Source of the DNA: a bacterium
GTDB lineage: Bacteria > Zhuqueibacterota > QNDG01 > JAGLOF01
Length of the DNA stretch: 64,000 bases
Direction: 5' to 3'
NCBI GenBank assembly: GCA_016934955.1
Contig: JAFGRY010000030.1
Coordinates: forward strand, 5,899 to 69,898
The position numbers and the translations under genes are program-made. Every line of letters starts with the position of its first letter. Positions within the stretch are counted from its first letter, which is position 1. The notes beneath the pieces are model-generated. The model was not told the DNA's origin, made no database searches, and worked only from the letters and a program-made list of their open reading frames with translations. Shown piece by piece: positions 16,205-32,111 of this stretch.

Positions 16205-18193
16205 ATGGAAAAAGACAGGCGTGTCGCATGGCCGGGACTCTTTTTTTATTTTATTTTGGTAGCGCTTCCATATTTCGGCTGTCACCGCCGTGCACCGGCG
16301 CTGCGCCAGGTGACGGTCACCTACCAGCCGGTGATCGCCGGTGAACTCGATGTATTCATTGCCGGTACGTTCAACGACTGGAACTCGACGCTCAACCGCA
16401 TGACAGACGAAGACGGAGATGGTGTATATGAGGCCAGTCTGCTGCTGGCTCCCGGACGGTACGAATACAAATTCGTTGTCAATGGCGAGTGGAAAACCGA
16501 TTTCAACGCCGAAGAGTTCATGGGCGCTGGTCAGGAGGGCGACAATGCCGTGCTCTATGTGGATGACCGTTATACGGCGGTGAGCCTTTCCCGGGGAGAC
16601 GGTGATATATACTATCGTGATCTGCACCTTGAAACCGGCTACCGGATGCTCGATCCCTATGCCGACGGATCGCTGCGTGTGACGGTGCCGGCGATGAAGC
16701 AGGATGTCGAACGGGTCCGGATGCACTGGAGCGGGGTGAACGGGGCTCAGGGAACCGTTGCCGATATGGAACTGAAAGCGACCGGTCCGCTCTTTGATTA
16801 CTATCAGGTGCTCCTGGATCCGGGCGGACGGGGGGGCATTCGATTTTTCTTCAGCTATGAGGATGGCGACTCCTGCGTATATGCCGGTGCGGGGGGATTT
16901 TCGGCCGCGGCACCGGCCCCGGACCAGTGGTTTGTCTACGATCCTGAACAGCTGGCTCCCTTCAAAACCCCCGACTGGGCCAAGGAAGGCATTTTTTACC
17001 AGATATTCCCCGATCGGTTTCGCAACGGGGATCCGGACAACGATCCGGATTTTTCCGAATCCTACTTCCGGGGCAGGCATACACTGCCCCCGGGCGGCAA
17101 GACCAACGATGAATACTTTCACATGGAGGCCTGGGATTCCATAGGAGGGCTGGTACACAGTCCCTACCGCACGGACGGGAAACCAGACTATTACTCATTT
17201 TACGGCGGCGACATCGCGGGAGTGATGGAGAAACTGGATTACCTTGAAGAGCTGGGTGTCACCATTATCTATTTCAATCCTCTCAATCAGGCGAAGTCAA
17301 ACCACAAATATGATCCGGTTGATTATCTGAAGATCGATTCCCATTTCGCGGATGAGCCGCTGTTTAAGCGGTTCACCGCAGCCGCCAGGGAGCATGGGAT
17401 ACGGATAATCGTCGACAAGGCGTTCAACCATACCGGTGACGAACATTTCGCGTTCGTCGATACCAGGGAGCGGGGAGAAGCCTCTCCCTACTGGCATTGG
17501 TACGAATGGCACACGTGGCCCCTGCCGCCGGAAGGGGCGCCTACGCCCAACGACTATTATGACTGCTGGTGGGGATTTCCGCTGCATCCCAACCTGAATT
17601 TCGACCTCTCCCGGCCGAATCGCGATGAAAACATGATTCGCGACATCACCGCCGCAACCCCCAACCGTGAAGTGGTGGAGTATCTGCTTTCCGTTGCCGA
17701 TTACTGGATCGGCACCCTGGGAATAGATGGGTTCCGTCTCGATGTCCCCAATGAAGTGCCTTTCTGGTTCTGGAAACTGTTCAGGCAGCGAGTGGAATCA
17801 CTTGACAGGGACGCCTACCTTATCGGCGAGATCTGGGGTGATGCGCTGCCGTGGCTGGGTGAAGACGGATTTCACTCTACCATGAATTATAAATACTTCC
17901 GGGATCCGGTACTCGATTTTTTCGCCAGTCGTAAAACGGATGCGCAACAGTTCGATGAAGCCATGGCCCCGGGCCGGGTCCTGTATCCGCGAGAAGCGCT
18001 GCTGGCAATGATGAATCTTATAGACAGTCACGACACCGTGAGATTCCTGACACAGGCCGGCGGTGATATCCGTCGACTGGAGCTGGCGGTGCTTTTCCAG
18101 ATGACCTATGTCGGTATCCCTCAAATCTATTACGGCGATGAGGTGGCGCTGCAGGGCGGCAAGGATCCCGATAACCGGCGTCCGTTTCCCTAG
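16205..18193 (+). CDS. GH13 alpha-amylase-family enzyme (neopullulanase/cyclomaltodextrinase-like) with N-terminal CBM48-like module, ended by an in-frame TAG
   Basis: Hydrophobic N-terminus ending YFGC. AMPK-beta/CBM48-like FIAGTFNDWN..GRYEYKFVVNGEW. GH13 regions FNHTGDEH, GFRLDVPNEV, GEIWGD and LIDSHDT. Ends ...GKDPDNRRPFP-TAG. Confidence 0.9.
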   Translation: MEKDRRVAWPGLFFYFILVALPYFGCHRRAPALRQVTVTYQPVIAGELDVFIAGTFNDWNSTLNRMTDEDGDGVYEASLLLAPGRYEYKFVVNGEWKTDFNAEEFMGAGQEGDNAVLYVDDRYTAVSLSRGDGDIYYRDLHLETGYRMLDPYADGSLRVTVPAMKQDVERVRMHWSGVNGAQGTVADMELKATGPLFDYYQVLLDPGGRGGIRFFFSYEDGDSCVYAGAGGFSAAAPAPDQWFVYDPEQLAPFKTPDWAKEGIFYQIFPDRFRNGDPDNDPDFSESYFRGRHTLPPGGKTNDEYFHMEAWDSIGGLVHSPYRTDGKPDYYSFYGGDIAGVMEKLDYLEELGVTIIYFNPLNQAKSNHKYDPVDYLKIDSHFADEPLFKRFTAAAREHGIRIIVDKAFNHTGDEHFAFVDTRERGEASPYWHWYEWHTWPLPPEGAPTPNDYYDCWWGFPLHPNLNFDLSRPNRDENMIRDITAATPNREVVEYLLSVADYWIGTLGIDGFRLDVPNEVPFWFWKLFRQRVESLDRDAYLIGEIWGDALPWLGEDGFHSTMNYKYFRDPVLDFFASRKTDAQQFDEAMAPGRVLYPREALLAMMNLIDSHDTVRFLTQAGGDIRRLELAVLFQMTYVGIPQIYYGDEVALQGGKDPDNRRPFP

Positions 18194-18529
18194 AACTGGC
18201 AGGATGATGAGGTACGCAACGATGTTCACGCGTGCTACCGTCGCCTGATTCACATCAGACGGTCACAGCCCTGCCTCATATACGGAACGTACGAGACCCT
18301 GTACGCCCGGGACCGTCAAATCGCCTACCTGAGGGCGCTGCGGGGAGAACGTATGCTCATTCTGATCAATAACAGCGGCACCCGCGAATCCCTGGCATTT
18401 CCTGCGGACGCGGGAAAAAAGATCACCGGCAGCTGGAAGAACCTGCTCGATGGGCGGGAATACACCTTTGATGCAACACCGACTGTTGCGCTGGACCCCT
18501 GGGAAGGACTGCTGCTCATTCACCAGTAG
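18194..18529 (+). other. In-frame continuation of the GH13 gene encoding its C-terminal domain (pseudogene fragment or read-through extension)
   Basis: Same frame, with 111 sense codons after the TAG: NWQDDEVRNDVHACYRRLIHIRRSQPCLIYGTYETLY...DPWEGLLLIHQ. The stop is at 18527-18529, 20 nt before glgP. Confidence 0.75.
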
Positions 18530-18548
18530 AAATAATTGAGGTGCCTAC

Positions 18549-20687
18549 ATGCCTGATTCTCATACCACGACCGTCCCGTTCATCCCCGCCAGATTGCAGC
18601 GGCTCAGGGATCTTGCCGATAATCTGGCCTTCAGCTGGAACGATCAGACCCTTGGCCTCTTTGCCGCTCTCGATGAACGTCTCTGGCATATCGTCAATCA
18701 CAACCCGGTGCGGCTGCTGATGGAAATCGATCCCGGCAGACTCATGCAGGCGGCTGAAGACGAGAGCGTGCTCTCACTGTATGATGCAGCGGTCAGCCGA
18801 TTCGACGATGAGATGGGGATGGAGAAAACATGGTTCAGTCAGCAATACGCGCATCGCAAGGGACATCTTATTGCCTATTTCAGCATGGAGTTCGGGCTGC
18901 ATGAAAGCCTGCCCGTCTATTCGGGAGGGCTGGGAATTCTGGCCGGGGACCACCTGAAGACGGCCAGCAGCATGGGCATACCCATGATCGGGGTCGGGCT
19001 GCTCTACCGTGTGTCCTATTTCAAGCAGTTCATCGCCTCGGACGGCAGGCAGCAGGCGGTCTATGAAGGGGCGGAGTTTTCCGGATTGCCCTTGAAACTC
19101 GTTACCGACGAGGTGCGGCGGCCGGTCGTCGTCCGCATTCCGGTACAGGATCGGGAGATCAGTGTCCGGGTCTGGAAGGCCGAAGTGGGCCGGGTACCGC
19201 TGCTGCTGCTCGATACCGATTTCCCCGCAAACCGGGCATCGGACCGGATCATCACCGAACGTCTGTACGATGCGGACCGCACCTACCGGCTGCTCCAGGA
19301 ACTGGTTCTCGGCGTCGGCGGTGTCCGTATGCTGGAGGCGCTCGATCTGCCGGTGAGTATATACCACCTCAACGAGGGGCACAGCGCCCTCCTCTCCATC
19401 GAACGGATGCAGCAGCTGACGGCTGCCGGCAGAAAGTGGGAGGAGGCGCTCTCCGCGGTGCGGGAATCAACGGTGTTTACCACCCATACACCCGTTCCGG
19501 CCGGGAATGAAGTGTTTGAGCGGGAGCGGATGGAACGGGTGCTCAGTGCCCGGCATCGGGGAATCCTCGATCACAACGGGGGCAGCGGCTGGCGTCTGGG
19601 ACAGTGCGCCGATGAAGAGGAAACGGGAACCTTCAACCTGACCATCCTGGCGCTGCGCACATCCCGTAAAAGCAACGCGGTGAGTGTGCTGCACGGAGAC
19701 GTGTCGCGGCGGATGTGGCAGCGTGTCTGGCCGGACCTGCCGCTGGAGAACGTGCCGATGGACGCGGTGACCAACGGTGTCCATGCACCGACCTGGATAC
19801 ATCCATCTTTCAAGGGGGTGTTCCGGCGCTATCTGGAAGAAAGCTGGCATCAGCATCTCGATGATCCGGAATTCTGGTCGCGTATGGATGCCGTGCCCGA
19901 CGAGACGATCTGGAGTGTGCACCGGGAGATCAAAAAAAGCATGCTCAGGGAGGTGCGGCGGCGGGTCGCGGCTCTGCGGGACAGAAATGGCGAGGATGCC
20001 GCCGCCGTGTGCGGGGCCGCGGGTATCCTGGGTGATGATGTTCTGACCATCGGTTTCGCGCGCCGGTTCGCCCCCTACAAACGGGCGACGCTGCTGCTGC
20101 ACGATCCGGAGAGGCTGAAGCGGCTTCTCGGCAACGAAGACCGGCCGGTTCAATTTATCTTCGCGGGCAAAGCTCACCCCGCAGACAGTGACGGGAAGCA
20201 GATCCTGCGGTATCTCTACGAGTTCAGCCGGGATGCGGGCATCGCAGATCGTCTCGTATTCGTGGAAAACTATGATATGGCTCTTTCCCGCCTGCTCATT
20301 GCCGGATGCGACTGCTGGCTCAATACGCCGCGGCGTCCCTATGAGGCCAGCGGCACCAGCGGCATGAAGGCGGCGATGAACGGCTGCCTCAATATAAGCA
20401 TCAAGGACGGATGGTGGGCCGAGGCGAGTGATACCGCCTACGGGTGGACCATCGGCGATGATACGCAGGATCCCGATCACGGCCGGCAGGATGAACGGGA
20501 CAGCGGCGCCCTCTATGCGCTGCTGGAATCAGAGGTGATCCCCGCGTATTATCAGCGTAACGGCAGCCCCTGGAGCAGCCGCTGGGTCGATATGATGAAA
20601 CGGTCCATCTCCGCATTGACGCCCCGCTTCAGTACGGTCAGAATGCTGCGGGAATATGTCGGGACCTGTTATTTCCCGAACCGGTGA
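18549..20687 (+). CDS. glgP: Alpha-glucan phosphorylase (GT35, alpha-glucan family)
   Basis: YFSMEFGLHESLPVYSGGLGILAGDHLKTASSMGIPMIGVGLLY, HLNEGHSA, FARRFAPYKR and EASGTSGMKAAMNG (PLP lysine region). Confidence 0.9.
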   Translation: MPDSHTTTVPFIPARLQRLRDLADNLAFSWNDQTLGLFAALDERLWHIVNHNPVRLLMEIDPGRLMQAAEDESVLSLYDAAVSRFDDEMGMEKTWFSQQYAHRKGHLIAYFSMEFGLHESLPVYSGGLGILAGDHLKTASSMGIPMIGVGLLYRVSYFKQFIASDGRQQAVYEGAEFSGLPLKLVTDEVRRPVVVRIPVQDREISVRVWKAEVGRVPLLLLDTDFPANRASDRIITERLYDADRTYRLLQELVLGVGGVRMLEALDLPVSIYHLNEGHSALLSIERMQQLTAAGRKWEEALSAVRESTVFTTHTPVPAGNEVFERERMERVLSARHRGILDHNGGSGWRLGQCADEEETGTFNLTILALRTSRKSNAVSVLHGDVSRRMWQRVWPDLPLENVPMDAVTNGVHAPTWIHPSFKGVFRRYLEESWHQHLDDPEFWSRMDAVPDETIWSVHREIKKSMLREVRRRVAALRDRNGEDAAAVCGAAGILGDDVLTIGFARRFAPYKRATLLLHDPERLKRLLGNEDRPVQFIFAGKAHPADSDGKQILRYLYEFSRDAGIADRLVFVENYDMALSRLLIAGCDCWLNTPRRPYEASGTSGMKAAMNGCLNISIKDGWWAEASDTAYGWTIGDDTQDPDHGRQDERDSGALYALLESEVIPAYYQRNGSPWSSRWVDMMKRSISALTPRFSTVRMLREYVGTCYFPNR

Positions 20688-20749
20688 TTCTCCCCGGCGG
20701 CAGCCGCCGGCGGGAGAACAGTAAAAAAACCGCTTGCTTTCCGCGGTTT
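20688..20749 (+). terminator. Two hairpins downstream of glgP (possible terminator)
   Basis: First hairpin: TTCTCCC/CGGCGG-cag-CCGCCG/GGGAGAA, with a bulge. Second hairpin: AAACCGC-N9-GCGGTTT followed by TTTG. No long U-run. Confidence 0.35.
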
Positions 20750-20770
20750 GAATTAGTATAATACACCATA

Positions 20771-20788
20771 TTTGGAAGCCCTTCCAAA
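20771..20788. promoter_or_regulatory. Perfect palindrome TTTGGAAG-CC-CTTCCAAA upstream of the LacI gene (candidate operator)
   Basis: Read directly. It sits just downstream of a possible TTGCTT-17-TATAAT promoter (20734-20762) and 48 nt upstream of the LacI ATG. Confidence 0.35.
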
Positions 20789-20835
20789 ATTTGCGTGTTT
20801 TATACACTCTCGTACCACAAGACAGGACCAGACGT

Positions 20836-21861
20836 ATGGCTGTGACTATTTACGATATAGCCGAAAAAGCGGGTGTCGGTATCGGCACCGTCTCCCGGGC
20901 CCTCAATAATAGTCCCCATATTTCCCTGCGAACCAAAGAAAAGGTCCAGGCGGTTATCACAGAGCTCGGGTATCAGCCGCACGCCATGGCCCGGGGCCTC
21001 GCCAAGCAGAAAACCTATACTTTCGCGGTGATCGTTCCCGTGTTTACCGGTTATTTTTTCATGGAAGTGCTGCGGGGTGTACAGCAGGAGGTCACCAAGG
21101 CGCACTATGACATGATTCTCTACAGCGTCGATCACAGTGACAAGACCGACCTCTTTCTGAAAAAGGTTACCAGAGAAAAGCGGGTCGATGGTGCGCTTCT
21201 CATCTCGCTCGGTATCAGTGACGTTCAGGCGTCCGCCTGCACACGGTTACGATTCCCCATCGTGCTGGTCGACAGCACGCACCCGTCACTCGATTCCATC
21301 ACGGTTCAGAACCGTCAGGGCGCGGAACGGGCCACGTCCCATCTTATTTCGCTGGGACATACAAAAATCGGCATGATCGATGCGCAGCTCAAGAGTTCTC
21401 CGGCGCAGGTCCGGCTTGAGGGATACCGGGATGCGCTGAAAAAGCACGGCTTGCCGCTGGATGAAAAATACCTCATCATCAGCGATCAGATCGCCGGCCA
21501 GCACGGCTTCAACCGGGAGTCGGGCTATCTGGCAATGAAACAGCTGCTGCAGCTCGGCAGTGAGCGCCCCACCGCGGTGTTTGTCTCCAGCGATATTCAG
21601 GCGGCCGGCGCGGTGCGCGCAATCAGTGAAGAGGGATTGACCATACCCGAAGACGTCTCGCTGATCGGGTTCGATGATATTGAGATTGCGGAATACCTGG
21701 AATTGACCACCATGAGGCAGCCCATGTTCCAGCTCGGGCAGCTGGGGGTCCGGAGACTGCTGGAGCGAATCGCCAATCCCGATCTCGAGCGGTTCCATCG
21801 CAGTTTCGATACAGAACTGGTCATCAGGCAGAGCTGCGGAATTGTGACGTCCACCAACTGA
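20836..21861 (+). CDS. LacI-family transcriptional regulator
   Basis: N-terminal HTH TIYDIAEKAGVGIGTVSRALNN, then a periplasmic-binding-protein-like sugar-binding fold (FVSSDIQAAGAVRAI, IGFDDIEIAEY). Confidence 0.9.
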   Translation: MAVTIYDIAEKAGVGIGTVSRALNNSPHISLRTKEKVQAVITELGYQPHAMARGLAKQKTYTFAVIVPVFTGYFFMEVLRGVQQEVTKAHYDMILYSVDHSDKTDLFLKKVTREKRVDGALLISLGISDVQASACTRLRFPIVLVDSTHPSLDSITVQNRQGAERATSHLISLGHTKIGMIDAQLKSSPAQVRLEGYRDALKKHGLPLDEKYLIISDQIAGQHGFNRESGYLAMKQLLQLGSERPTAVFVSSDIQAAGAVRAISEEGLTIPEDVSLIGFDDIEIAEYLELTTMRQPMFQLGQLGVRRLLERIANPDLERFHRSFDTELVIRQSCGIVTSTN

Positions 21862-21984
21862 ATCTCTGTTTCACCGCCTTCGGCTATCGCTTCCCGGTTT
21901 CACTGCAGCCCCGTCCCCCGGAAACGGGGAACACTTTCAGATGTAGATAACCGTTTACATATGTTAAATATGGAGCTGACAACA

Positions 21985-24900
21985 ATGAGAGGTGTACAAA
22001 GAACCGTTGCCATCGGACTGATGCTTTTCACGGTCTGTCTCGCGTCATTGCCTGTCTTCGCGGGAAATTCGGGAAAGATCACCGGCGTTGTCTATGATAA
22101 AGCAACCGGAGCGCCGCTGTATTACGCAAATGTCGTGATACAGGGCACCAATAAGGGGGCGGCCTGCGATGCCAACGGAAAATACACGATCATCAATGTT
22201 CCGGCCGGCGTCTATACACTGGTGGCGACCTACATCGGGTATTCGACGACAAAGGTGGAAAACGTCCGGGTCATGACCGATTTAACCACGACCATCGATA
22301 TTTACCTCGAACCGGGAGGCCTGACCGGTCAGACGGTCACGGTAGTGGCTGAGAGACCGATCGTTCAGAAAGACCTGACCGCCACTACCGCTGTGGTCGG
22401 TTCCGAAGAGATCAGGAATCTGCCGGTTACGGAAATCGCGGACGCGGTGGAACTGCAGGCAGGCCTGGTCAAGGATGCCGGCGGCGGACTCCATGTTCGG
22501 GGAGGGCGCAGCGGTGAAGTCAGCTACTGGATCGACGGCGTACCGGTAACAGACATGTACGACGGCGGCACTGTGGTTGATGTCAATAAAGACATGGTAC
22601 AGGAGCTGCAGGTTGTCAGCGGCGCATTCAATGCCGAATACGGCCAGGCAATGTCGGGGATCGTCAACATTACCACCAAACGGGGCAGCAACGAATTCGG
22701 CGGCAACATCACCACCTATTTCGGAGATCACGTCAGCTCTCACAATACTATTTTCATGGACGTCGGCAGCGTCAATCCCGTTTCCATAAGAAATGTCGAG
22801 GGAAGCCTTTACGGTCCCCTGATCAAGGATAAACTGTACTATTACGTGAACGGCCGCTATATCTATTTCGACGGCTGGCTGAACGGGCGGCGTCTCTACA
22901 ATCCCAATGCCGTTACCGGTCAGATAACCGCTACCAGGGATTTCATTGAATATTACGCCCCTGAATATCTTGACCGGGCGATTCGCCAGGATGACGGAAG
23001 TTACGCGTTTCAGTATGTGGTGGGGAGCAATGCCTACGTGGATTCACTGGTCACCTATTTCAATCTGCCCCAGGCCAAAGCGACGAACCCCGATTCGCTT
23101 GCCGCCTATTATGAGAAACTGCGCAACAACAACAAGGACGCTCTCGGAGACGGGAAATATATCCCCATGAACTGGAACCGGAAGATATACACCCAGGGAA
23201 AACTCATCTACCGGATCATGCCGACCATGGATCTTTCCTACAATTATATTCTCGACGATGTCAACTACAATGATTATGAACGGGATTACATCTTCAATCC
23301 CGACGGCGCGTCCCGGAAATTCAGGAGCGGTACAACCCATATTCTGAAACTCAATCATTCCCTGAGCAGCAGGACGTTCTACAATCTCGGTATTTCCTAT
23401 TTTATCAAAGGATTCCAGCGGTACCTGTATGAAGACACCCACGATGAGCGGTATGTCCACCCCTATCTGGAACTGCAGGATCCCTACTCGTTCAAAACCG
23501 GGGGCACACAGCTGGTGCATTTCAGAAGAAAAACCAGGACCATGCTGGCAAAATTCGATCTCACCAGCCAGATAACCGATCAGCACCAGCTCAAGGGAGG
23601 CATCGAGTACCGGCAGCACAATATCTTTCAGGAAGACATCAATCTGCGGCCGGCTGCCGGACAGACCGATATAACCCTGCCCTTCGACAGTCCCTATATC
23701 GATACCCGTGTTTTGGCGGACAGCACCATTTACTACAGCACCTACCGTCATAAGCCCGTGGAGTTTTCCGCGTATCTGCAGGACAAGATGGAGTTCAAGA
23801 GTCTCATCGTCAACCTGGGAGTGCGCATGGATTATTTCACCCCGGACGGTATTATTCTCACCGATGAGAGTGATCCCAATATCTATAATCCCATCAAGCC
23901 GCAAAACCGCTATCATGACTGGGGAACCGATGGTGTTCCCGGCACCTACGATGCAGACGGCAGCGAGGGGAACGGCACCCAGGATCCCGGCGAGCCGAAT
24001 GTGACGCTTGCCGAGCGGCAGGAGTACTGGTACCGGGATGCGACCTCCAAACTCCAGATAAGTCCCCGTATCGGTGTCAGCTTTCCCATTACCGAGCGGG
24101 GAATCATTCACTTTTCCTATGGTCACTTTTTTCAGCTGCCCCGGTTTGAACTGCTCTACCAGAATCCGGATTTCGAGCTGGGCTCCGGTACGGGCAACGT
24201 CGGTGTGATCGGCAATGCCGATCTGGAGCCGGAACAGACCATCAGCGGCGAGCTGGGGCTGCAGCAGGGGCTCACCGATGACATATCGCTGTCGGTGACC
24301 GCGTATTTCCGGGATATTCGCAACCTGACCGGAACAAAGGCGGATGAGATTCTTCTCTATGGCGGGGCAGCCCGCTACAGCAAGCTGACGAACAGCGATT
24401 TCGGATTCATCAAGGGAGTCATCCTCGCCCTGAACAAGCGGTTCTCAGGCGGGTTCGGCGCCTCGGTGGACTATACATTTCAGATCGCGGACGGCACCAA
24501 CTCCGATCCGGAGCAGGCGCGGAACGCCCTGGCGGGGGGGTCACTGCCGGAAGTGCAGCTGGTGCCCCTCAACTGGGACCAGACACACACCGTTAATGCC
24601 TCATTCACCTATGGCGGCAGAAACTGGGGCGCCAGTGTGATCGGCCAGTGGGGCAGCGGGCTGCCCTACACACCCCGGGCCTCAACCGATCTGAGCACGC
24701 TGCTGGTAAACAGCCAGCGCAAACCGGGAACAGTCAATGTCGATTTGCGAGCCTATTACGATGTTTCGCTTCCGTTCGGAAACGGGACATTCTTCGTGCG
24801 CGTGTTCAACCTGTTTGACACGCTGAACGAAATCAATGTGTTCAATGATACCGGCCGGGCCGGATTTACCACCGATCAGCTGGTAGCGGAGCGGTCCAAC

Positions 24901-24999
24901 CCGATTCTTTCCGTCAACACCCTCGATCAGTGGTTCACCAATGCAACCCACTATTCCGAACCGAGACGGATAGAAGTCGGCTTTACCTATAATTTTTAG
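21985..24999 (+). CDS. TonB-dependent outer-membrane receptor with N-terminal carboxypeptidase-regulatory-like domain
   Basis: Signal peptide MRGVQRTVAIGLMLFTVCLASLPVFA. GKITGVVYDKATGAPLYYANVVIQGT..GKYTIINVPAGVYTL matches CarbopepD_reg. The plug reads LQAGLV..LHVRGGRSGEVSYWIDGVPV. The barrel ends with the canonical ...GFTYNF. Alternative ATG at 21961. Confidence 0.9.
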   Translation: MRGVQRTVAIGLMLFTVCLASLPVFAGNSGKITGVVYDKATGAPLYYANVVIQGTNKGAACDANGKYTIINVPAGVYTLVATYIGYSTTKVENVRVMTDLTTTIDIYLEPGGLTGQTVTVVAERPIVQKDLTATTAVVGSEEIRNLPVTEIADAVELQAGLVKDAGGGLHVRGGRSGEVSYWIDGVPVTDMYDGGTVVDVNKDMVQELQVVSGAFNAEYGQAMSGIVNITTKRGSNEFGGNITTYFGDHVSSHNTIFMDVGSVNPVSIRNVEGSLYGPLIKDKLYYYVNGRYIYFDGWLNGRRLYNPNAVTGQITATRDFIEYYAPEYLDRAIRQDDGSYAFQYVVGSNAYVDSLVTYFNLPQAKATNPDSLAAYYEKLRNNNKDALGDGKYIPMNWNRKIYTQGKLIYRIMPTMDLSYNYILDDVNYNDYERDYIFNPDGASRKFRSGTTHILKLNHSLSSRTFYNLGISYFIKGFQRYLYEDTHDERYVHPYLELQDPYSFKTGGTQLVHFRRKTRTMLAKFDLTSQITDQHQLKGGIEYRQHNIFQEDINLRPAAGQTDITLPFDSPYIDTRVLADSTIYYSTYRHKPVEFSAYLQDKMEFKSLIVNLGVRMDYFTPDGIILTDESDPNIYNPIKPQNRYHDWGTDGVPGTYDADGSEGNGTQDPGEPNVTLAERQEYWYRDATSKLQISPRIGVSFPITERGIIHFSYGHFFQLPRFELLYQNPDFELGSGTGNVGVIGNADLEPEQTISGELGLQQGLTDDISLSVTAYFRDIRNLTGTKADEILLYGGAARYSKLTNSDFGFIKGVILALNKRFSGGFGASVDYTFQIADGTNSDPEQARNALAGGSLPEVQLVPLNWDQTHTVNASFTYGGRNWGASVIGQWGSGLPYTPRASTDLSTLLVNSQRKPGTVNVDLRAYYDVSLPFGNGTFFVRVFNLFDTLNEINVFNDTGRAGFTTDQLVAERSNPILSVNTLDQWFTNATHYSEPRRIEVGFTYNF

Positions 25000-25035
25000 A
25001 CGATGTCTATCACCGCAGCCAATCGGAGCGTTATT

Positions 25036-28000
25036 ATGAAAAGAACTGGAATCATTACCCCGTTAGTTATCGGCAGCCTGCTCTGCCTCGCGGCGGGCCG
25101 CCTTCCCGCCCAGAGCGGACCGCAGTATCAGCGGTCGGCCATCATGCGCGGCAATCTGGTGAAAACGGTGTTCGGCAACTGGGGCGTGATCGGGCAGCCT
25201 GCGGATAAAGGCGCCCGCGGTGCCTGGATATACGACAATAACGGGTATATCGGGGATGTCAGTCCCATGGTCGGCGCCGAGGTTACCACTGCCGACGGCA
25301 CCACTTTTCATTCAGTGGTGGTATGTCCCGTGGACCGGCCCACACGGCGTCACGAACAGTCGAACTCGGGCGAGTACTGGGGTTTTCAGCCTGTCGCCGG
25401 CTACTTCAATGAGAATCAGGAGGGTGTCGCCCTCTACAGTGATCCGACATCATGGCCCGCGATGTGGCCGGACAAGATGGACGATGCCAACGATCCCGGC
25501 TGGAACGGATCCTGGAACGGTTTTTTCGGCAAGACGACAACGGCCGCGGATGAGGCGTTTTTCGTCATGGATGACAACAATGACGAAGAATTCAACTATG
25601 CCGAGAATAACCGCTGGCACGTTTCGTTCAAGCCCGACGCGAACGATCTCTCCCGGAACGGCCTCGGCCTGGAAGTGAAAGTGCGGGCGATGCAGTGGGC
25701 CGATTTTCTGGCCCAGGACTGCATCTTCTGGCTTTATGAAATCACCAACACCAGCACCACCGATTACACCAAGGTCGTGTTCGGCATGCTTGTGGGTACC
25801 TATATCGGAGTGACCTCAACCGAGGATTACCGGGAGTACGAAGACGATTACTCGTTTTTTGATGTCGACAAGGATCTCACCTACACCGCCGATTTCGATG
25901 ACAACGCCAGCAGAAATCCCCTCTGGACCGGTGATGTGGGTGTGGTGGGATATGCGTTTCTGGAAAGTCCGGGCAACCAGTATGACGGCATCGACAATGA
26001 CGGCGACGCAGATGAAAATCCGCTGCTTCCCGGTACTGGCCCCTATTTTACTGCCGACGATTTTGTCCCCAGGGTGATCAGGGCCGGGGACAAGATCGTA
26101 CTGATAGACCGGTCATATAACCGTACGGTACAGACTCTGGGAAGCAGTCCCGTTACCGTCGTCACCTTCGGCGACAGTATCGACATCGTTCCCGGATCGA
26201 CGACGCTGGCGGAGGGGAATGTCATCATTCAGCAGGGCCGGGAGATCATCAACCCCAATGCCTACGATGGAATCGACAATGATCTCGACGGCGTTATCGA
26301 CGAAAACTACTACCTGCACTACCGCCAGATCCGCAAGGATCAGGAGGGTAACGTGCTCATCGACAAACTCAGTCCGGTTCGGCATAAAGACTATATCTCC
26401 GGGCTGGGAGTTGCCGATCCGCTCATCGACGAGCGCCGGGATGACGGTATCGACAATGACGGCGACTGGAACCCCGAATTCGACGATGTGGGCAACGACG
26501 GTCTCATCGGCACCAATGATCCGGGCGAGGGTGACGGATTCCCCACGCCGGGAGAGCCCAATTTCGATCAGACCGATGTGGACGAGTCCGACCAGATCGG
26601 ACTGACCAGCTTCGAATATTTCACCCCGGCGGTGGAATTTTCCATGGCGGACGACGAAGAGCTGTGGCAGCGTCTCGCCCCCGGTTTTTTCGAAGTGCCC
26701 GAATCGATCGTCAACAACAAACCCGAACGGGGAGAAGACGGTGATTTTATCTACGGCTCCGGGTATTTCCCCCTGCGGGCGGGAGAGACCCAGCGCTTTT
26801 CCCTGGCCCTGGTGTACGGCGAGGGCGGCGGCAAGGACGTCGATATCGCAGACCTGCTCAACAACCGGGAGACGGTGCAGAAGATCTATGACAGCGATTA
26901 CCGTTTTCCGCCCGCGCCTGACAAGCCGACACTGGTTGCGGTGCCCGGTGACGGAAAAGTCACCCTCTACTGGGACCGGAAGGCGGAAAAAAGTTTTGAC
27001 CCGGTGCTGAAGCGGTATGATTTCGAGGGTTACAAGATCTACAAGGCGACGGACCACAATTTCAATGAGGTGTTCGATATCACCGATGCATCGGGTAATC
27101 CGGTGGGATACAAGCCGCTGGCCCAGTTCGACATGGATGACGGTATCGAAGGCTACTTCCGGGCCAGTAACGATCTCTTCCAGCAAAGCAGGGGCGCTTC
27201 CTTTTATCTTGGCGATGACAGCGGGCTCGAGCATTCCTTTGTCGACACCGACGTGGAAAACGGCCGGCGGTATTTTTACGCGGTGGTCGCCTATGACCAG
27301 GGTGACGAGACCGCGGATATCTTTCCCAAGGAGAATGACAAGCGGATCGATATCGCCCCCTCGGGCACGGTTCGTACATTCCAGAACACCGCGGTGGTGA
27401 TCCCCAATGCCGAAACCGCCGGGTATGAACCCCCGGAAAACAGTATCGAGATCACCGGCGGCAGCGGTGTTGGAACCGGGCGGATTTATTACAAGGTCGT
27501 CGATGAAACCGTTCTCAAGGATCATCAGTACCGGCTCGAGTTCCTCGATACATCCAATGACGGTATTGACAACAACGGCAACTGGAACGTTCTCACCGAC
27601 GATGTGGGCAGTGACGGCATTGCCGGCACCTCGGATGCGGACGGCAGCGAGAGCAACGGAATCCCCGATCCCGGAGAACCGAACCTGGACCACCGGGACA
27701 GCCTGGAATATTTTGTACCGGTGACCACAGCCTATTCGGTGCGTGATGTCACCGGGCTCAGCGAGACCTTCACCGGCTCGGATACGTTCGCCGTACGTCT
27801 CTCGGTGCCGCATATCATTACCGAGACGGTGTCGGTTACCGATTACAACGGCAACACGGTCGATCCCGCAGAGTATATCCTTGACGGCATCAACGGTAAA
27901 ATACGGGGAAGCGCGCCGGGAGACATCGCATACGGACGCAATTACACGGTCAGCTATCAGTACTACCCGGTGTTTACCAGTCCCTATATTCAGAAGAGCC

Positions 28001-28887
28001 CCTACGCGGAAGAGACCCTTGATTCCGATATTTTCGACGGTATGTGGCTCTCGTTCAACAATCACTGGAAAATAACCCTCGATACCACCCGTACGTACTG
28101 GTCCGACTCCTCAAAGAGCTATAATTTTTCCTTCAACGTGATCGATACCTATTTCGGGGCTGACCGGCTCCTGGGACTCCGTCATCCGGCAGACTACGAC
28201 ATCATTTTCGCAGACGGTGTCATCGATACGTCCCTGACCATGCCCGAGCTGTTCGTGCAGGGGATACCGGTGAATTTCACCGTCTACAACCTGACCGATG
28301 AGCGGGATGTGGATTTTATTTTCGTCGATCTCGACCGCAATGCGCGGCTTTCACCCTATGACGAGATTGTATTTGTGGAAGAGGGGGAAGCCGGCAGTCG
28401 GATATTTACCTGGGATCTCTTTTTTACAAGCATGCTCGATACATCCTATATATACGGCACCGGTGATACACTGGCCATACGGTTGAAGAAGCCGTTCAGA
28501 AGCGGTGACGTATTCGAGTTTACTCCGGATGTCCCCGATGTTGACAGGACACTGCCCGCCGATTCCCTGCTCGACATGATCCGGGTGGTACCCAATCCCT
28601 ATGTCGTCGCCACCTCCCACGAACTGCCGCTGCCTCCGGCCATCACCAGCGGCAGGGGTGAGCGGAAAATCGATTTCATTCATCTGCCGCCGGGTGCCAC
28701 GGTCTATATTTTTACTTCCAGAGGGGACCTGGTACGCACACTGGAGCATGATAACAATATTTTTGACGGAACGCTTTCCTGGAACCTGAAAACATGGGAA
28801 AACCTCGATATCGCCGCCGGTATCTACTTTTACGTGGTAGAATCCTCCATCGGTATCAAGAGGGGTAAATTAGCGGTCATTAAATAA
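25036..28887 (+). CDS. Giant secreted acidic-repeat (Ca2+-binding-like) protein with C-terminal T9SS-type sorting domain
   Basis: Signal peptide MKRTGIITPLVIGSLLCLAAGRLPAQS. Four D-G-I-D-N-D/N-G-D/N type acidic loops. The C-terminus VVPNPYVV...VYIFTSRGDLVRTL..GTLSWNL..AGIYFYVVES..KLAVIK resembles a T9SS CTD. The ORF opens at 25003. Confidence 0.85.
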   Translation: MKRTGIITPLVIGSLLCLAAGRLPAQSGPQYQRSAIMRGNLVKTVFGNWGVIGQPADKGARGAWIYDNNGYIGDVSPMVGAEVTTADGTTFHSVVVCPVDRPTRRHEQSNSGEYWGFQPVAGYFNENQEGVALYSDPTSWPAMWPDKMDDANDPGWNGSWNGFFGKTTTAADEAFFVMDDNNDEEFNYAENNRWHVSFKPDANDLSRNGLGLEVKVRAMQWADFLAQDCIFWLYEITNTSTTDYTKVVFGMLVGTYIGVTSTEDYREYEDDYSFFDVDKDLTYTADFDDNASRNPLWTGDVGVVGYAFLESPGNQYDGIDNDGDADENPLLPGTGPYFTADDFVPRVIRAGDKIVLIDRSYNRTVQTLGSSPVTVVTFGDSIDIVPGSTTLAEGNVIIQQGREIINPNAYDGIDNDLDGVIDENYYLHYRQIRKDQEGNVLIDKLSPVRHKDYISGLGVADPLIDERRDDGIDNDGDWNPEFDDVGNDGLIGTNDPGEGDGFPTPGEPNFDQTDVDESDQIGLTSFEYFTPAVEFSMADDEELWQRLAPGFFEVPESIVNNKPERGEDGDFIYGSGYFPLRAGETQRFSLALVYGEGGGKDVDIADLLNNRETVQKIYDSDYRFPPAPDKPTLVAVPGDGKVTLYWDRKAEKSFDPVLKRYDFEGYKIYKATDHNFNEVFDITDASGNPVGYKPLAQFDMDDGIEGYFRASNDLFQQSRGASFYLGDDSGLEHSFVDTDVENGRRYFYAVVAYDQGDETADIFPKENDKRIDIAPSGTVRTFQNTAVVIPNAETAGYEPPENSIEITGGSGVGTGRIYYKVVDETVLKDHQYRLEFLDTSNDGIDNNGNWNVLTDDVGSDGIAGTSDADGSESNGIPDPGEPNLDHRDSLEYFVPVTTAYSVRDVTGLSETFTGSDTFAVRLSVPHIITETVSVTDYNGNTVDPAEYILDGINGKIRGSAPGDIAYGRNYTVSYQYYPVFTSPYIQKSPYAEETLDSDIFDGMWLSFNNHWKITLDTTRTYWSDSSKSYNFSFNVIDTYFGADRLLGLRHPADYDIIFADGVIDTSLTMPELFVQGIPVNFTVYNLTDERDVDFIFVDLDRNARLSPYDEIVFVEEGEAGSRIFTWDLFFTSMLDTSYIYGTGDTLAIRLKKPFRSGDVFEFTPDVPDVDRTLPADSLLDMIRVVPNPYVVATSHELPLPPAITSGRGERKIDFIHLPPGATVYIFTSRGDLVRTLEHDNNIFDGTLSWNLKTWENLDIAAGIYFYVVESSIGIKRGKLAVIK

Positions 28888-28929
28888 TATGCTGGGTATG
28901 CTGATTCACTTAGACAAGTGGAGATAGAT

Positions 28930-29952
28930 ATGATCACCACACGGAACATTCGCAGTGCTCTCACCCTGACGCTGGTCCTCTGCGGGAGCTCCCTGCTCCA
29001 GGGTCAGGCCAAAGTGGGGACAACCGCAGCGCCATTCCTGGGGATATCGGTGTCTCCGCGGGCCGCCGCCATGGGTAGCGCGTATGCAGCCATGGCTTCG
29101 GACGCCACCGGCATGTACTACAACCCGGGCGGGATCAGCCGCTCCGGCACATCGCAGTTCGTGTTCGCCCATACCAGCTGGCTGGTCAACACCGATCTGA
29201 ACTGGTTCGGGTTCGTGCTCAACCTCGGTGAGAGCGCTCTCGGCATAAGCGTCACCCAGCTGGATTACGGTGAAGAGATGGTGACCACCGTTCTGGAGCC
29301 GGAAGGAACGGGTGAGCGCTGGGCGGCCCGGGATCTGGCGGCCACGGTTTCGTTTGGACGCAACCTGACCGACCGGTTTTCCCTGGGCGGGAATGTCAAA
29401 TACATCCACCAGAAAATCTGGAATGAGACGGGTTCCGCATTCGCCGTTGATCTGGGCCTGCTCTATATCACCCCCTTCAATGACATGCGGATCGGCATGA
29501 GCATTTCCAATTTCGGCAGTGATCTCAGAATGGAGGGGAAGGACCTGATCCAGCGTGTGGATCTGGATCCGACGGCCACCGGCCACAATGAGACGATCGT
29601 CGGTAATCTGAAAACCGATCCCTGGCCGCTGCCGCTTTTCTTCAGAGTCGGTGTCGCTATGGATGTCATCCGCATGAGCCGCAACCGGCTGACCGTTGCT
29701 GTAGATGCCTTCCGCCCCAGTGACAACACGGAAACGCTGAATGCCGGAGCCGAGCTCGCGGTTATGGATATGTTTTTTCTCCGCGCAGGCTACAAGTCGC
29801 TCTTTCGGGAAGACAGTGAGGCCGGACTCACCATGGGTATGGGAGTGACCATGGCGCTGGCCGGAAGCGTGCAGTGGCATCTGGACTATACGTTTATCAA
29901 CTACGGCCTTTTTGAAGACATCCATATGCTGGCCGTGGCAGTGGGATTTTAA
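28930..29952 (+). CDS. PorV/PorQ-family outer-membrane beta-barrel protein
   Basis: Signal peptide, then AKVGTTAAPFLGISVSPRAAAMGSAYAAMASDATGMYYNPGGIS, the N-terminal signature I associate with PorV/PorQ. Alternating beta-strand pattern ending ...MLAVAVGF. Alternative GTG at 28918. Confidence 0.7.
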   Translation: MITTRNIRSALTLTLVLCGSSLLQGQAKVGTTAAPFLGISVSPRAAAMGSAYAAMASDATGMYYNPGGISRSGTSQFVFAHTSWLVNTDLNWFGFVLNLGESALGISVTQLDYGEEMVTTVLEPEGTGERWAARDLAATVSFGRNLTDRFSLGGNVKYIHQKIWNETGSAFAVDLGLLYITPFNDMRIGMSISNFGSDLRMEGKDLIQRVDLDPTATGHNETIVGNLKTDPWPLPLFFRVGVAMDVIRMSRNRLTVAVDAFRPSDNTETLNAGAELAVMDMFFLRAGYKSLFREDSEAGLTMGMGVTMALAGSVQWHLDYTFINYGLFEDIHMLAVAVGF

Positions 29953-30116
29953 CAGTATCAATAGATATGTCGATGAGACCGTATGGAAAGGAGGTGAGAG
30001 GAAAACCGCTATTGCAATACGAAAGAGCAATGGAAAGGAGGTGGTTCAGTAAAAACGTGCAGTACGATAATGTGTCAAGGGAGAATAATCGCTATTAACG
30101 TAAAGGGGTTTTATTC

Positions 30117-30953
30117 ATGAAACGGTTGCTATTAGTTACGCTTGCGGTAGTGCTGCTGGCCGGTCTCGCATTCGGACAGGTCAATGTAACCTACCGTATC
30201 AACATTTCCACCGTTGCCGGCGTCGGTATCGCCGACTCCTCGCATCAGGTACAGGTCTGCGGTTCCGAAGTCGGTCCCGTGGGCCAGGATCTGTGGGAGA
30301 ATTCGTACCTCACCTGGGACGATGCTTCTCCGCTGGCCACCCATGTCAGCGGCGACATCTGGGAATTGACCATTTCCTATCCCGAATCGTATGTCGGCTG
30401 GCGGATGGCGTATAAGATCCGCTATAAATCGAATATGGCCGATGGATTCAGCTGGGAAAACGGCGACAACCGCATGTGGGTCATGCCCGCCCACGACACG
30501 ACCCTGGCGATGGCGTACGTGAACAATGCCTGGGATCCTCCGTACCGGGTTACGGACAGTGTCGACGTCTACTTCAGGGTTGATATGAGCGCCCATGAAA
30601 CATTCGATCCCGATAACGATATCGTCTATATCGTCGGCGCCTTCCCCGGACCGGACGGGGCCGACAATATGTGGGTGCCCGACAAATATGCCCTGACCCC
30701 GGAAACACCCGCAAATCTCATGTGGGGTTTCGACCTGAAACTGGATGCGGCCAGCGCACCCTATTTACAGACGATGTACCGGTTCACGCTCGGCGCCTGG
30801 GACAACAGCGAGCAGGTTTTCGGTCACGGCATGTTCCCGGATAACGAGAACCGCGGTATTTCCGTATACGGCGACACAACAGTCAACTGGGTATGGTGGA
30901 ACGACGTCGCACCCCTCCAGGTCGATCACGGTGACACCATGGTCGTCACCTAG
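30117..30953 (+). CDS. N-terminal part (signal peptide plus repeated beta-sandwich, CBM-like modules) of a surface protein, ended by an in-frame TAG
   Basis: MKRLLLVTLAVVLLAGLAFGQ signal. Modules begin VNVTYRINIS and VDVYFRVDMS. There is no sorting or anchor domain before the TAG at 30951-30953. Confidence 0.8.
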   Translation: MKRLLLVTLAVVLLAGLAFGQVNVTYRINISTVAGVGIADSSHQVQVCGSEVGPVGQDLWENSYLTWDDASPLATHVSGDIWELTISYPESYVGWRMAYKIRYKSNMADGFSWENGDNRMWVMPAHDTTLAMAYVNNAWDPPYRVTDSVDVYFRVDMSAHETFDPDNDIVYIVGAFPGPDGADNMWVPDKYALTPETPANLMWGFDLKLDAASAPYLQTMYRFTLGAWDNSEQVFGHGMFPDNENRGISVYGDTTVNWVWWNDVAPLQVDHGDTMVVT

Positions 30954-30962
30954 CACGCCGAT

Positions 30963-32111
30963 ATGGCCAAAGCGATCGCCAGCCAGGGTTTCTCATTCGG
31001 CGACACGCTGGAAGTGTCACACGGCTATTTCGGCACCGCTTCGGGCGTCAGAACCAAGATGATGCTGCGTCAGGGTCTCTCCACTGTTTACGCAGCGACC
31101 GACACGGTAGTCGGCACCATCGGTGAAGATCTCGACTATCAGTACTACCTCACCAAGAACGGTAATGAATATCGCGAGATCTACTACAACTTCTACTATT
31201 CCGGAAACACCACCGGAGAAGCGGAACGGCGGATTTATTACGGCATAGATGACGGCGCGGTCATCGAAGACATCGTTGACAGTCAGTCGGAAGAACGCCG
31301 CATGCCCATTTTCAGGAATACCAGCATTCTCGATCGGGATGTCCTGGTTACCTTTGAATGCGATCTGCGGCCGGCTTACTATCAGGTAATGGCCGGTGAC
31401 AGTCTCGTCGATATTCAGAGCGTTTTCACGGTACGTCAGCCTGAAGAAGTGATTACCTGGGGCGTTGCCATGAACGGCCCCGCCACCGGAGAGTGGGGCA
31501 CCTGGGGTGCCGGACTCATGCAGACCGACGATCACCGCATGTACGATGACGGCACCCACGGCGATGCCACGGCCGGTGACACGATCTACACGATGCAGGT
31601 GCAGTTCTATGCGGACAGTACCAATAACGTGGTCGGCCAGGAGTTCAAATTCGGGATCGGCGGCGGTGACAACGAAGGCGGGTACGGGAACAATCACATC
31701 GCCAATATCGATGATGCCGGTGCCGCCTATACGATCTACACCCAGTTCGGCAGCATCGACCCGGTATTCTATGATGCCTGGGACTTCGATCTCATGATGC
31801 CCACCGATGTGGATGATGCGGGCAGTCAGCCGCTGACGTTCCAGCTGAATCAGAACTATCCCAATCCATTCAATCCGGAAACCAGGATCAGCTATACGAT
31901 TCCCCGGGATGTTACCGTGACCCTGTCCGTCTACAATCTGCTCGGGCAGAAGATCGCCACCCTCGTCGACGGCCGCATGACCGCCGGCAGCCATGTGGTG
32001 ACCTGGAACGGCAAAGATCAGTTCGGCCGTCAGGTAGGCACCGGTGTCTACATCTACCGTATCGATGCGGGCACCTTCAATGCCACAAACAAGATGCTTC
32101 TGATGAAGTAG
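30963..32111 (+). CDS. C-terminal part of the same surface protein, carrying the T9SS sorting domain
   Basis: Same frame as 30117..30953, 3 codons after the TAG. No signal peptide. Module VLVTFECDL. C-terminus LNQNYPNPFNPETRISYTIPRDVTVTLSVYNLLGQKIATL..GTGVYIYRI..NKMLLMK is a T9SS type-A CTD. Confidence 0.8.
   Translation: MAKAIASQGFSFGDTLEVSHGYFGTASGVRTKMMLRQGLSTVYAATDTVVGTIGEDLDYQYYLTKNGNEYREIYYNFYYSGNTTGEAERRIYYGIDDGAVIEDIVDSQSEERRMPIFRNTSILDRDVLVTFECDLRPAYYQVMAGDSLVDIQSVFTVRQPEEVITWGVAMNGPATGEWGTWGAGLMQTDDHRMYDDGTHGDATAGDTIYTMQVQFYADSTNNVVGQEFKFGIGGGDNEGGYGNNHIANIDDAGAAYTIYTQFGSIDPVFYDAWDFDLMMPTDVDDAGSQPLTFQLNQNYPNPFNPETRISYTIPRDVTVTLSVYNLLGQKIATLVDGRMTAGSHVVTWNGKDQFGRQVGTGVYIYRIDAGTFNATNKMLLMK

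Follow-up and report, generated by a model that had tools for sequence, protein, structure and literature searches.

Hotspots of amber mutation in the lacI gene of E. coli were reportedly traced by Coulondre, Miller and colleagues in 1978 to the deamination of 5-methylcytosine at CCWGG. Dcm-type C5-methyltransferases methylate the inner cytosine of this motif, and the deamination of 5-methylcytosine gives thymine in a T:G mismatch, which is easily fixed as a mutation. When the inner cytosine changes to T, a CAG codon becomes TAG, and so does a TGG codon if the cytosine lies on the opposite strand; the same type of change is likely in the locus described here. Background on the Dcm/Vsr systems is given in PMC2715241. 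Two other groups of systems are also close to our case. In UAG recoding systems (pyrrolysine, suppressor tRNAs, TAG-recoded phages) the in-frame TAG likewise lies within otherwise intact genes. In niche-driven loss, nonsense pseudogenes of PUL carry, as here, single inactivating point mutations in an otherwise intact syntenic locus, with intact orthologues.

The window, i.e. the whole 64-kb stretch of DNA that was analysed, carries an alpha-glucan locus which is conserved across the order of this bacterium (Table 1). Two of its genes contain one in-frame TAG each, at the positions referred to as site 1 and site 2; as the preliminary description had it, each codon is in frame and interrupts a longer reading frame of its own. 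In the relative G006 synteny is kept and the locus is fully intact; it is also intact in all other relatives searched. The phosphorylase-like gene is missing at the equivalent position in the syntenic locus of G006. We note that the 1294-aa protein occupies the slot of the SusD-like gene in a Bacteroidota PUL.

Table 1. Genes of the alpha-glucan locus and internal stops. Positions are those of the window; the last two lines give contig and position.
Feature	Position	Strand	Observations
GH13 neopullulanase/cyclomaltodextrinase-like gene, 774 codons, one in-frame TAG	16205..18529	+	PF00128, Malt_amylase_C
Site-1 TAG at invariant Trp position	18191..18193	+	context TTTCCC TAG AACTGG
Alpha-glucan phosphorylase-like gene (DUF3417 + Phosphorylase), intact	18549..20687	+	domain matches
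LacI-family regulator of the locus, intact	20791..21861	+	78% identical to syntenic G006 gene
TonB-dependent receptor (CarboxypepD_reg + Plug), intact, genuine terminal TAG	21961..24999	+	
1294-aa protein with T9SS-type C-terminal signal, intact	25003..28887	+	77% identical to G006 orthologue
PorV-like outer-membrane protein, intact	28918..29952	+	
T9SS-sorted surface protein of the alpha-glucan locus, 664 codons, one in-frame TAG	30117..32111	+	signal peptide, sorting domain
Site-2 TAG at aromatic position	30951..30953	+	context GTCACC TAG CACGCC
Second GH13 with CBM48-like and T9SS sorting domains, intact, genuine terminal TAG	32185..35019	+	
Sodium:solute symporter-family transporter, intact, end of syntenic block	35057..37273	+	
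Internal TAG in ArsP_1 permease, Gln in relative	C17(-):49598	-	context AGC TAG G
Internal TGA in GH97 glycosidase, Trp in 9/9 orthologues	C5:8923		census + orthologues

At site 1 the TAG replaces residue 663 and thus falls inside the PF00128 alpha-amylase domain (residues 266–665 of the 774-aa GH13), upstream of the Malt_amylase_C domain at residues 694–741. Read literally, the gene gives a 662-aa product without the C-terminal beta-sandwich domain, and this product, as written, is predicted to be non-functional. The aligned residue is Trp in 118 of 118 database homologues and in 9 of 9 orthologues from related genomes, which bears out the earlier expectation of Trp at this codon; in all nine relatives the orthologue is full length and stop-free. 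The pentamer CCTAG at this site corresponds to CCTGG in which the G opposite the inner cytosine has become A.

The TAG at site 2 splits the surface protein into an N-terminal part of 278 aa with the signal peptide and a C-terminal part of 385 aa with the T9SS sorting domain, and a start codon follows the stop. Some members of this protein family also have CBM20. In its split form the protein is, to judge from its domains, non-functional. The family column reads F 102, W 9, Y 4, V 2, I 2, so that the expectation of Tyr or Phe in the preliminary description holds for the family (F 102, Y 4). For the immediate ancestor it probably does not hold: the two nearest orthologues, with 75% and 73% identity, both have Trp here, and the orthologues run over the full length without a stop. 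Because these two close orthologues have Trp and the stop lies in the CC-TAG context, Trp is the likely immediate ancestor despite the Phe-dominated family. The pentamer is again CCTAG, i.e. CCTGG mutated at the position equivalent to site 1. With Trp invariant at site 1 and present in the nearest orthologues at site 2, both changes are therefore most simply TGG to TAG.

Each interrupted gene has a single lesion and no frameshift, which points to events that are probably recent. Orthologues from 40 relatives have no stop at either site. Sequence of the same species was sought elsewhere: protein matches never rise above 68% and 75% identity, and exact-pattern scans of genome contigs and metagenome contigs give no same-species DNA. 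We suggest that each gene should be annotated as one pseudogene (or flagged as a possible error) and not as a pair of ORFs.

In the census of internal stops all 14,583 same-frame stop junctions of the MAG were compared with 2.43 Mb of G006; it reaches about one-third of the coding sequence, namely genes with an orthologue in ~79% of the G006 genome. In the testable part of the 4.4 Mb MAG it finds only four strong internal stops, three TAG and one TGA, which are those of sites 1 and 2, the ArsP_1 permease and the GH97 glycosidase. By this census the 64-kb window holds no further internal stop, as had been claimed. Three of the four interrupted genes (site 1, site 2 and GH97) are exported and of alpha-glucan type. 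We suggest that the GH97 enzyme serves starch use, and this role is only presumed, because alpha-galactosidases also belong to the GH97 family. It would be unlikely by chance, about 1–2% by a rough estimate, that two of some four internal stops fall within one 13-kb locus. The reverse census of G006 needed a coding-frame filter; unfiltered, it was dominated by off-frame ORFs that are conserved in the GC-rich subject. Ab initio scans of same-frame ORF pairs (codon log-odds; 3-periodic 4th-order Markov) were set aside as too noisy in this 57% GC genome; they cannot tell abutting from interrupted genes where the stop is followed by a start codon, which is the case at site 2. Genome-wide, these scans give no large TAG excess among the ORF pairs.

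In the window, both stops are TAG codons at sites of an aromatic residue, and the remainder of each gene beyond the stop is intact, as would be expected if UAG were decoded, e.g. as Trp, by programmed amber suppression or low-level read-through that tunes the starch genes. The MAG lacks tRNA-Trp and ~10% of the genome, and a suppressor tRNA might sit in the missing part. However, no tRNA with a CUA anticodon is found in the ~90% complete MAG, either among 38 ARAGORN tRNAs at default settings or among 198 relaxed candidates, and none is found in the 2.43 Mb of G006. PylS and PylD are also not found in the MAG (TIGR02367 best 24.7 bits with a cut-off of 178; TIGR03911 best 21.4 bits with a cut-off of 150). 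Unlike in UAG recoding systems, RF1 is present (C6:11373-12107, PAT and GGQSVN motifs, tblastn); RF2 with its SPF motif is on C47. TAG is a common terminator, ending 345 of 1652 long ORFs (21%) genome-wide. The six TAG terminators cited in the window (24997-24999, 32109-32111, 35017-35019, 62238-62240, 15081-15083 and 47113-47115), three of which lie on the minus strand, are all verified. Wholesale reassignment, already doubted in the preliminary description, is excluded by the presence of RF1, by the lack of tRNA-CUA and of PylS/PylD in these searches, and by the lack of TAG excess in the ORF pairs.

A phenomenon confined to amber codons, or amber suppression tuned for expression, is likewise not upheld. 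The effect is not amber-specific, because in GH97 an invariant Trp is replaced by TGA, and the third TAG sits at Gln in an unrelated permease; nor is it residue-specific. Moreover, TAG is expected for 46–67% of one-step nonsense mutations from the codon usage of the genome alone. The base after the stop varies over the four sites (A, C, G and G), and therefore they share no read-through context. The absence of stops at both positions in the 40 relatives also speaks against suppression, as does the small number of internal TAGs, three genome-wide, with TGA showing the same pattern. The literature searched holds nothing relevant on stop-codon recoding in KSB1, and a nanopore paper on Klebsiella found there gives no information specific to Dcm. 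Hence, we regard decoding of these UAG codons as scarcely credible.

After restoring the ancestral codon, all four internal stops sit in CCWGG, and in three of them the inner C is struck. The GH97 TGA strikes the outer cytosine, which is normally unmethylated. Among all possible transition-type nonsense mutations in this genome the expected share is 8.9% for the inner C and 13.4% for any CCWGG cytosine, which gives a probability of 0.0026 for at least three of four at the inner C and of 0.0003 for four of four in CCWGG. CTAG is depleted five-fold (observed/expected 0.19) and CCWGG is not depleted (1.05). CC precedes TAG in just 5 of the 345 TAG-terminated long ORFs, site 1 being one of the five, and in the genuine TAG terminators cited in the window the preceding base is never C.

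The genome has one C5-methyltransferase (G000:C37), 51% identical to E. coli Dcm over the catalytic and target-recognition regions; in the PDB it matches Dcm-type enzymes best. The Dcm-like gene is directly followed by the gene of a Vsr homologue that shares 42% identity with the E. coli protein. We infer that the methyltransferase is specific for CCWGG, and its conserved target-recognition region indicates that the inner C of CCWGG is probably methylated in this organism. The adjacent dcm-vsr pair, the strong CTAG depletion and the simple nonsense alleles make this genome similar to the known Dcm/Vsr systems. However, unlike in the classical Dcm hotspots, the host is an uncultured non-enterobacterial MAG for which methylation and its specificity are predicted, one hit (the TGA of GH97) falls on the outer cytosine, and the hits are concentrated in one metabolic function.

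We suggest that both TAGs are ordinary nonsense mutations at a Dcm-type hotspot which persist in dispensable or decaying alpha-glucan genes, and we consider this the probable explanation. At each site a Trp codon TGG that follows CC would have become TAG by a single G:C-to-A:T transition. The base affected lies opposite the inner cytosine of CCWGG, presumably the Dcm-methylated position; deamination of the 5-methylcytosine would yield a T:G mismatch and then a fixed nonsense allele. Most such mutations would be repaired or purged, and these alleles would persist because the genes of alpha-glucan utilisation are dispensable or being lost in the sampled population. In the preliminary description a G-to-A bias was offered as the common cause of the two stops in case TGG had been the ancestral codon at both sites; this is supported here and can be sharpened to a change of CC-TGG to CC-TAG at the Dcm-type CCWGG cytosine. 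Transcription-associated deamination was set aside, as for TGG to TAG the deaminated cytosine lies on the template strand.

This mechanism presupposes that the changes exist in the cells themselves and not only in the consensus, as we infer, and that selection on starch use is presumably relaxed. A consensus or sequencing artefact would mean that the cells carry TGG or CAG and that the assembly reports A or T; possible routes are miscalls of the C-to-T/G-to-A type that methylation induces in an assembly from long reads only, or a consensus following a minority strain. All four changes are indeed G:C to A:T at a probably methylated motif, and base modifications are reported to cause substitution errors of the C-to-T type in some bacterial assemblies made from nanopore data only (PMC11610603). 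However, base accuracy within CCWGG is ~99% with current basecalling models (PMC11610603). When ~1150 genes are set against those of a relative, frameshifts are nearly absent (three weak candidates, one at a contig end), which is evidence against a noisy long-read-only assembly. Only 148 CCTAG/CTAGG sites stand against 16,588 CCWGG sites, and only three of the former, judged by eye, are internal stops. Random errors would also not put three of four stops in alpha-glucan-type genes. We therefore consider an artefact unlikely, although not negligible.

The concentration of three of four nonsense hits in exported alpha-glucan-type proteins, all at CCWGG, can also be read as the result of selection for loss-of-function alleles (‘cheater’ or Black-Queen), possibly reversible, with the CCWGG codons acting as a crude two-way switch. 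The single lesion per gene fits this reading, as does the report that Vsr stimulates CTAGG-to-CCAGG changes (PMC2715241). However, nothing beyond relaxed selection is needed to explain these observations. In addition, the permease that took the fourth hit is unrelated, and the GH97 change falls on the outer C, which is unmethylated. We find selected alleles improbable. Slightly more doubtful still is the bolder claim that in-frame CCWGG codons (CC-TGG, C-CAG-G) form a methylation-driven, partly reversible switch or mark selected ‘cheater’ alleles in the degradation of starch as a public good. In such a switch the forward step would be the deamination of 5-methylcytosine and the reverse step the Vsr-biased repair of CTAGG to CCAGG. 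If it were true, the set of metabolic traits that flicker or decay in this uncultured bacterium of the sediment would be shaped by its methylome.

For ordinary hotspot mutations under relaxed selection the meaning is more general. Clustered amber codons in a MAG can mimic recoding or suppression, and a textbook hotspot together with relaxed selection explains those found here, which calls for caution. We also note that the signature of the Dcm/Vsr hotspot, with CC-TAG internal stops, CTAG depletion and a dcm-vsr pair, is visible in an uncultured lineage remote from the enterobacteria, in which it was defined. Unlike in the described PUL pseudogenes, the decay is at a very early stage, and the regulator, the receptor, the transporter and the second GH13 are still intact. 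Among the options of the preliminary description, the best supported is that the starch locus is in incipient decay, a third enzyme of alpha-glucan type, the GH97, also having a nonsense codon. Hence, our data suggest incipient decay of the alpha-glucan locus in a population that is losing, or does not need, starch/glycogen foraging.

Each of two genes in the window is interrupted by a single in-frame TAG, as the preliminary description had noted. The first encodes a GH13 neopullulanase-like enzyme (Pfam). Site 1 is residue 663, inside the catalytic-domain match (266-665), and the C-terminal amylase domain is encoded past it. All nine GH13 orthologues in related genomes are full length and stop-free with Trp at this position, and Trp occupies the column in 118 of 118 database homologues. 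The second gene encodes a 664-aa surface protein with the signal peptide upstream of site 2 and the T9SS sorting domain downstream; full-length, unbroken copies occur in several relatives. The earlier expectation of Trp at site 1 is thus borne out. That of Tyr/Phe at site 2 agrees with the Phe-rich family column (F 102, W 9, Y 4, V 2, I 2); in the two closest orthologues, however, which are 75% and 73% identical, the residue is Trp. Given the invariant Trp at site 1 and these two orthologues, TGG to TAG is the simplest reading at both sites, and the G-to-A change at TGG proposed earlier fits both, also by their CC-TAG context. As written, the GH13 enzyme would lose its C-terminal domain, and the N-terminal half of the surface protein would be exported without the sorting domain. 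Its C-terminal half might start at an ATG four codons past the stop, without a signal peptide.

The window is positions 5899-69898 of contig C51 in the MAG (G000; 4.4 Mb, 52 contigs, completeness roughly 90%), which was then surveyed for internal stops. Ab initio methods were dropped, as they do not separate interrupted genes from abutting ones. All 14,583 same-frame stop junctions were compared by tblastn with 2.43 Mb (about 79%) of the relative G006; a junction was kept if the alignment extended at least 12 residues past the stop on both sides, the subject was stop-free and the frame was coding by a Markov model. With about 1150 well-matched G006 ORFs and 441,000 aligned residues, the census reaches roughly a third of the coding sequence. 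Eight junctions pass: four convincing ones, one likely selenocysteine site, and three that are weak or join neighbouring kinase/regulator genes. At the GH97 stop, nine of nine orthologues have Trp, and the more than 50 homologues from 40 relatives all lack a stop. A TAA at C35:41548 (-) separates a response-regulator receiver domain from a PAS-like continuation, start codons being absent for 33 codons, and is read through with Asp in G006 (34% identity). This TAA lies outside a CCWGG context and may be a fifth nonsense lesion. The reverse census gives about four internal stops in the 2.43 Mb of G006, and those listed all lie outside CCWGG. Nonsense pseudogenes are hence normal in this group at a handful per MAG.

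Internal stops and the methyltransferase-endonuclease gene pair (contigs of G000 unless G006 is named)
Feature	Location	Strand	Context	Restored motif	Mutated cytosine	Remarks
TAG, GH13 (site 1)	window 18191-18193	+	CCC TAG	CCTGG	inner C, opposite strand	single stop in frame 16205-18529; census-convincing
TAG, T9SS surface protein (site 2)	window 30951-30953	+	ACC TAG	CCTGG	inner C, opposite strand	single stop in frame 30117-32111; census-convincing
TAG, ArsP_1 permease	C17:49598	-	AGC TAG G	CCAGG	inner C, coding strand	83% identity, Gln in G006; census-convincing
TGA, GH97 glycosidase (Pfam)	C5:8923		GCC TGA	CCTGG	outer C, opposite strand	census-convincing
TGA, thioredoxin-like protein	C35:103806	+				census junction
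TAGs, BNR-repeat-like gene	G006 C51:3152 and 4214	-				same gene; aligned to W and Y
TAG	G006 C87:8707	+				Gln position
TAA, aldehyde-dehydrogenase-like gene	G006 C27:4805	-
dcm-vsr-like pair	C37:23669-24958					outside the window; methyltransferase stop codon directly abuts vsr start codon

At the selenocysteine junction, the stop falls opposite the first cysteine of a CxxC motif in G006 (FWKAK*RDC vs FWDTWCPPC), and some 400 bp further downstream is the sole tRNA-Sec gene of the MAG (C35:104181-104276). The interrupted frame is likely a selenoprotein gene beside its tRNA. A second Sec-like in-frame TGA occurs at C29:85990 (+; ..NYFSGSG*GSQAC..), close to the start of a 516-codon frame, where a start codon is absent for 53 codons.

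Sequence context is the common denominator of the four convincing stops. Our null set comprises every transition-type nonsense mutation possible in the 1652 long ORFs, 8.9% of which fall at the inner cytosine of CCWGG and 13.4% at any of its cytosines. The probability of at least three of four stops at the inner C is 0.0026, and that of all four in the motif is 0.0003. CTAG is depleted five-fold (observed/expected 0.19), CCWGG is at expectation (1.05), and CC precedes the terminal TAG in only five of 345 TAG-ended long ORFs, site 1 among them. Inspection by eye of all CCTAG/CTAGG sites whose TAG closes a coding ORF gave no internal stops beyond the known three. Deamination of 5-methylcytosine at Dcm sites, here putatively methylated, classically leaves this signature. 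The MAG encodes exactly one C5-cytosine methyltransferase, for which the best matches among solved structures are Dcm-type enzymes. It shares 51% identity with E. coli Dcm, the specificity-setting stretch between motifs VIII and IX included. A homologue of E. coli Vsr, at 42% identity, comes after the methyltransferase gene without a gap. The methyltransferase also carries an N-terminal helix-turn-helix-like extension outside the region aligned to Dcm. The lacI amber hotspots are reportedly a precedent for such deamination; Dcm, Vsr and CTAGG-to-CCAGG conversion are treated in PMC2715241.

The main rival is that the four stops are consensus artefacts, and we regard this as unlikely. Some nanopore-only assemblies contain C-to-T errors caused by base modification, but the same study reports a CCWGG accuracy of about 99% with current models (PMC11610603). 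Moreover, the MAG has almost no frameshifts (three weak candidates vs G006, one at a contig end), and functional clustering of the hits is not what random errors would give. The collections searched yielded no second assembly of the species.

Programmed suppression of TAG is very unlikely. Long ORFs end in TAG 345, TGA 768 and TAA 539 times, the six window TAG terminators cited earlier are all correct, and both RF1 (PAT motif, GGQSVN) and RF2 (SPF motif) are encoded. ARAGORN finds 38 tRNAs, one tmRNA and one tRNA-Sec and, even at relaxed thresholds, no CUA-anticodon tRNA in this roughly 90% complete MAG; PylS and PylD models score far under cut-offs. The earlier view that wholesale reassignment is unlikely therefore stands. 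In same-frame ORF pairs, a scan proposed with it, the stop codons occur in nearly the proportions seen at ordinary terminators. The amber suppression raised earlier does not hold up. Nor is the pattern confined to amber codons: of the four stops, the GH97 one is a TGA where Trp is invariant, and in the permease a TAG stands in place of Gln. TAG makes up 46-67% of all one-step nonsense mutations expected from codon usage, the range reflecting the assumed transition bias, so the two window TAGs need no special mechanism. The RF2 open frame (C47:170058-171140) begins without its N-terminal part, as expected if prfB has its usual programmed +1 frameshift. tRNA-Trp, absent at default thresholds, usually lies downstream of tuf; a contig end falls inside a tuf-like gene (C22:2-598) just beyond a Thr-Gly-Tyr-Thr tRNA cluster, which probably explains the absence.

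Three of the four lesions hit alpha-glucan-type functions (GH13 and the T9SS surface protein in one locus, and a GH97), and to this extent the incipient decay of the starch locus suggested earlier holds. The locus (16205-38823) is collinear with contig C28 of G006 at 62-79% amino-acid identity, and every G006 gene in it is intact, with the genomes about 21 GC points apart (57% and 36%). The common order is GH13, LacI, TonB-dependent receptor, 1294-aa T9SS protein, PorV-like, surface protein, second GH13 and symporter. The GlgP-like gene 18549-20687 is present in the G000 locus only, and a GH97 paralogue adjoins GH13 in G006 and in another relative, G017. Within 21961-29952, the T9SS-signal and PorV-like genes come after the TonB-dependent receptor, where no SusD-like gene follows; this PUL-like architecture lacking SusD is kept in G006.

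Over its 664 codons the surface protein retains 11 sites of the form CC|TGG or C|CAG|G, above the genome-wide load of about 5.4 per 1000 codons. GH13 is average in at-risk codons, and the clustering therefore needs more than mutational supply. With one lesion per gene and no frameshift, the events are recent. A selected or reversible switch at the stops seems to us highly improbable. As the simplest account, we suggest that putatively methylated CCWGG sites would give a high supply of nonsense mutations, and that nonsense alleles would survive only in genes dispensable in this habitat. The finding would then be an unremarkable case, in a new lineage, of a mutational mechanism that is already known.
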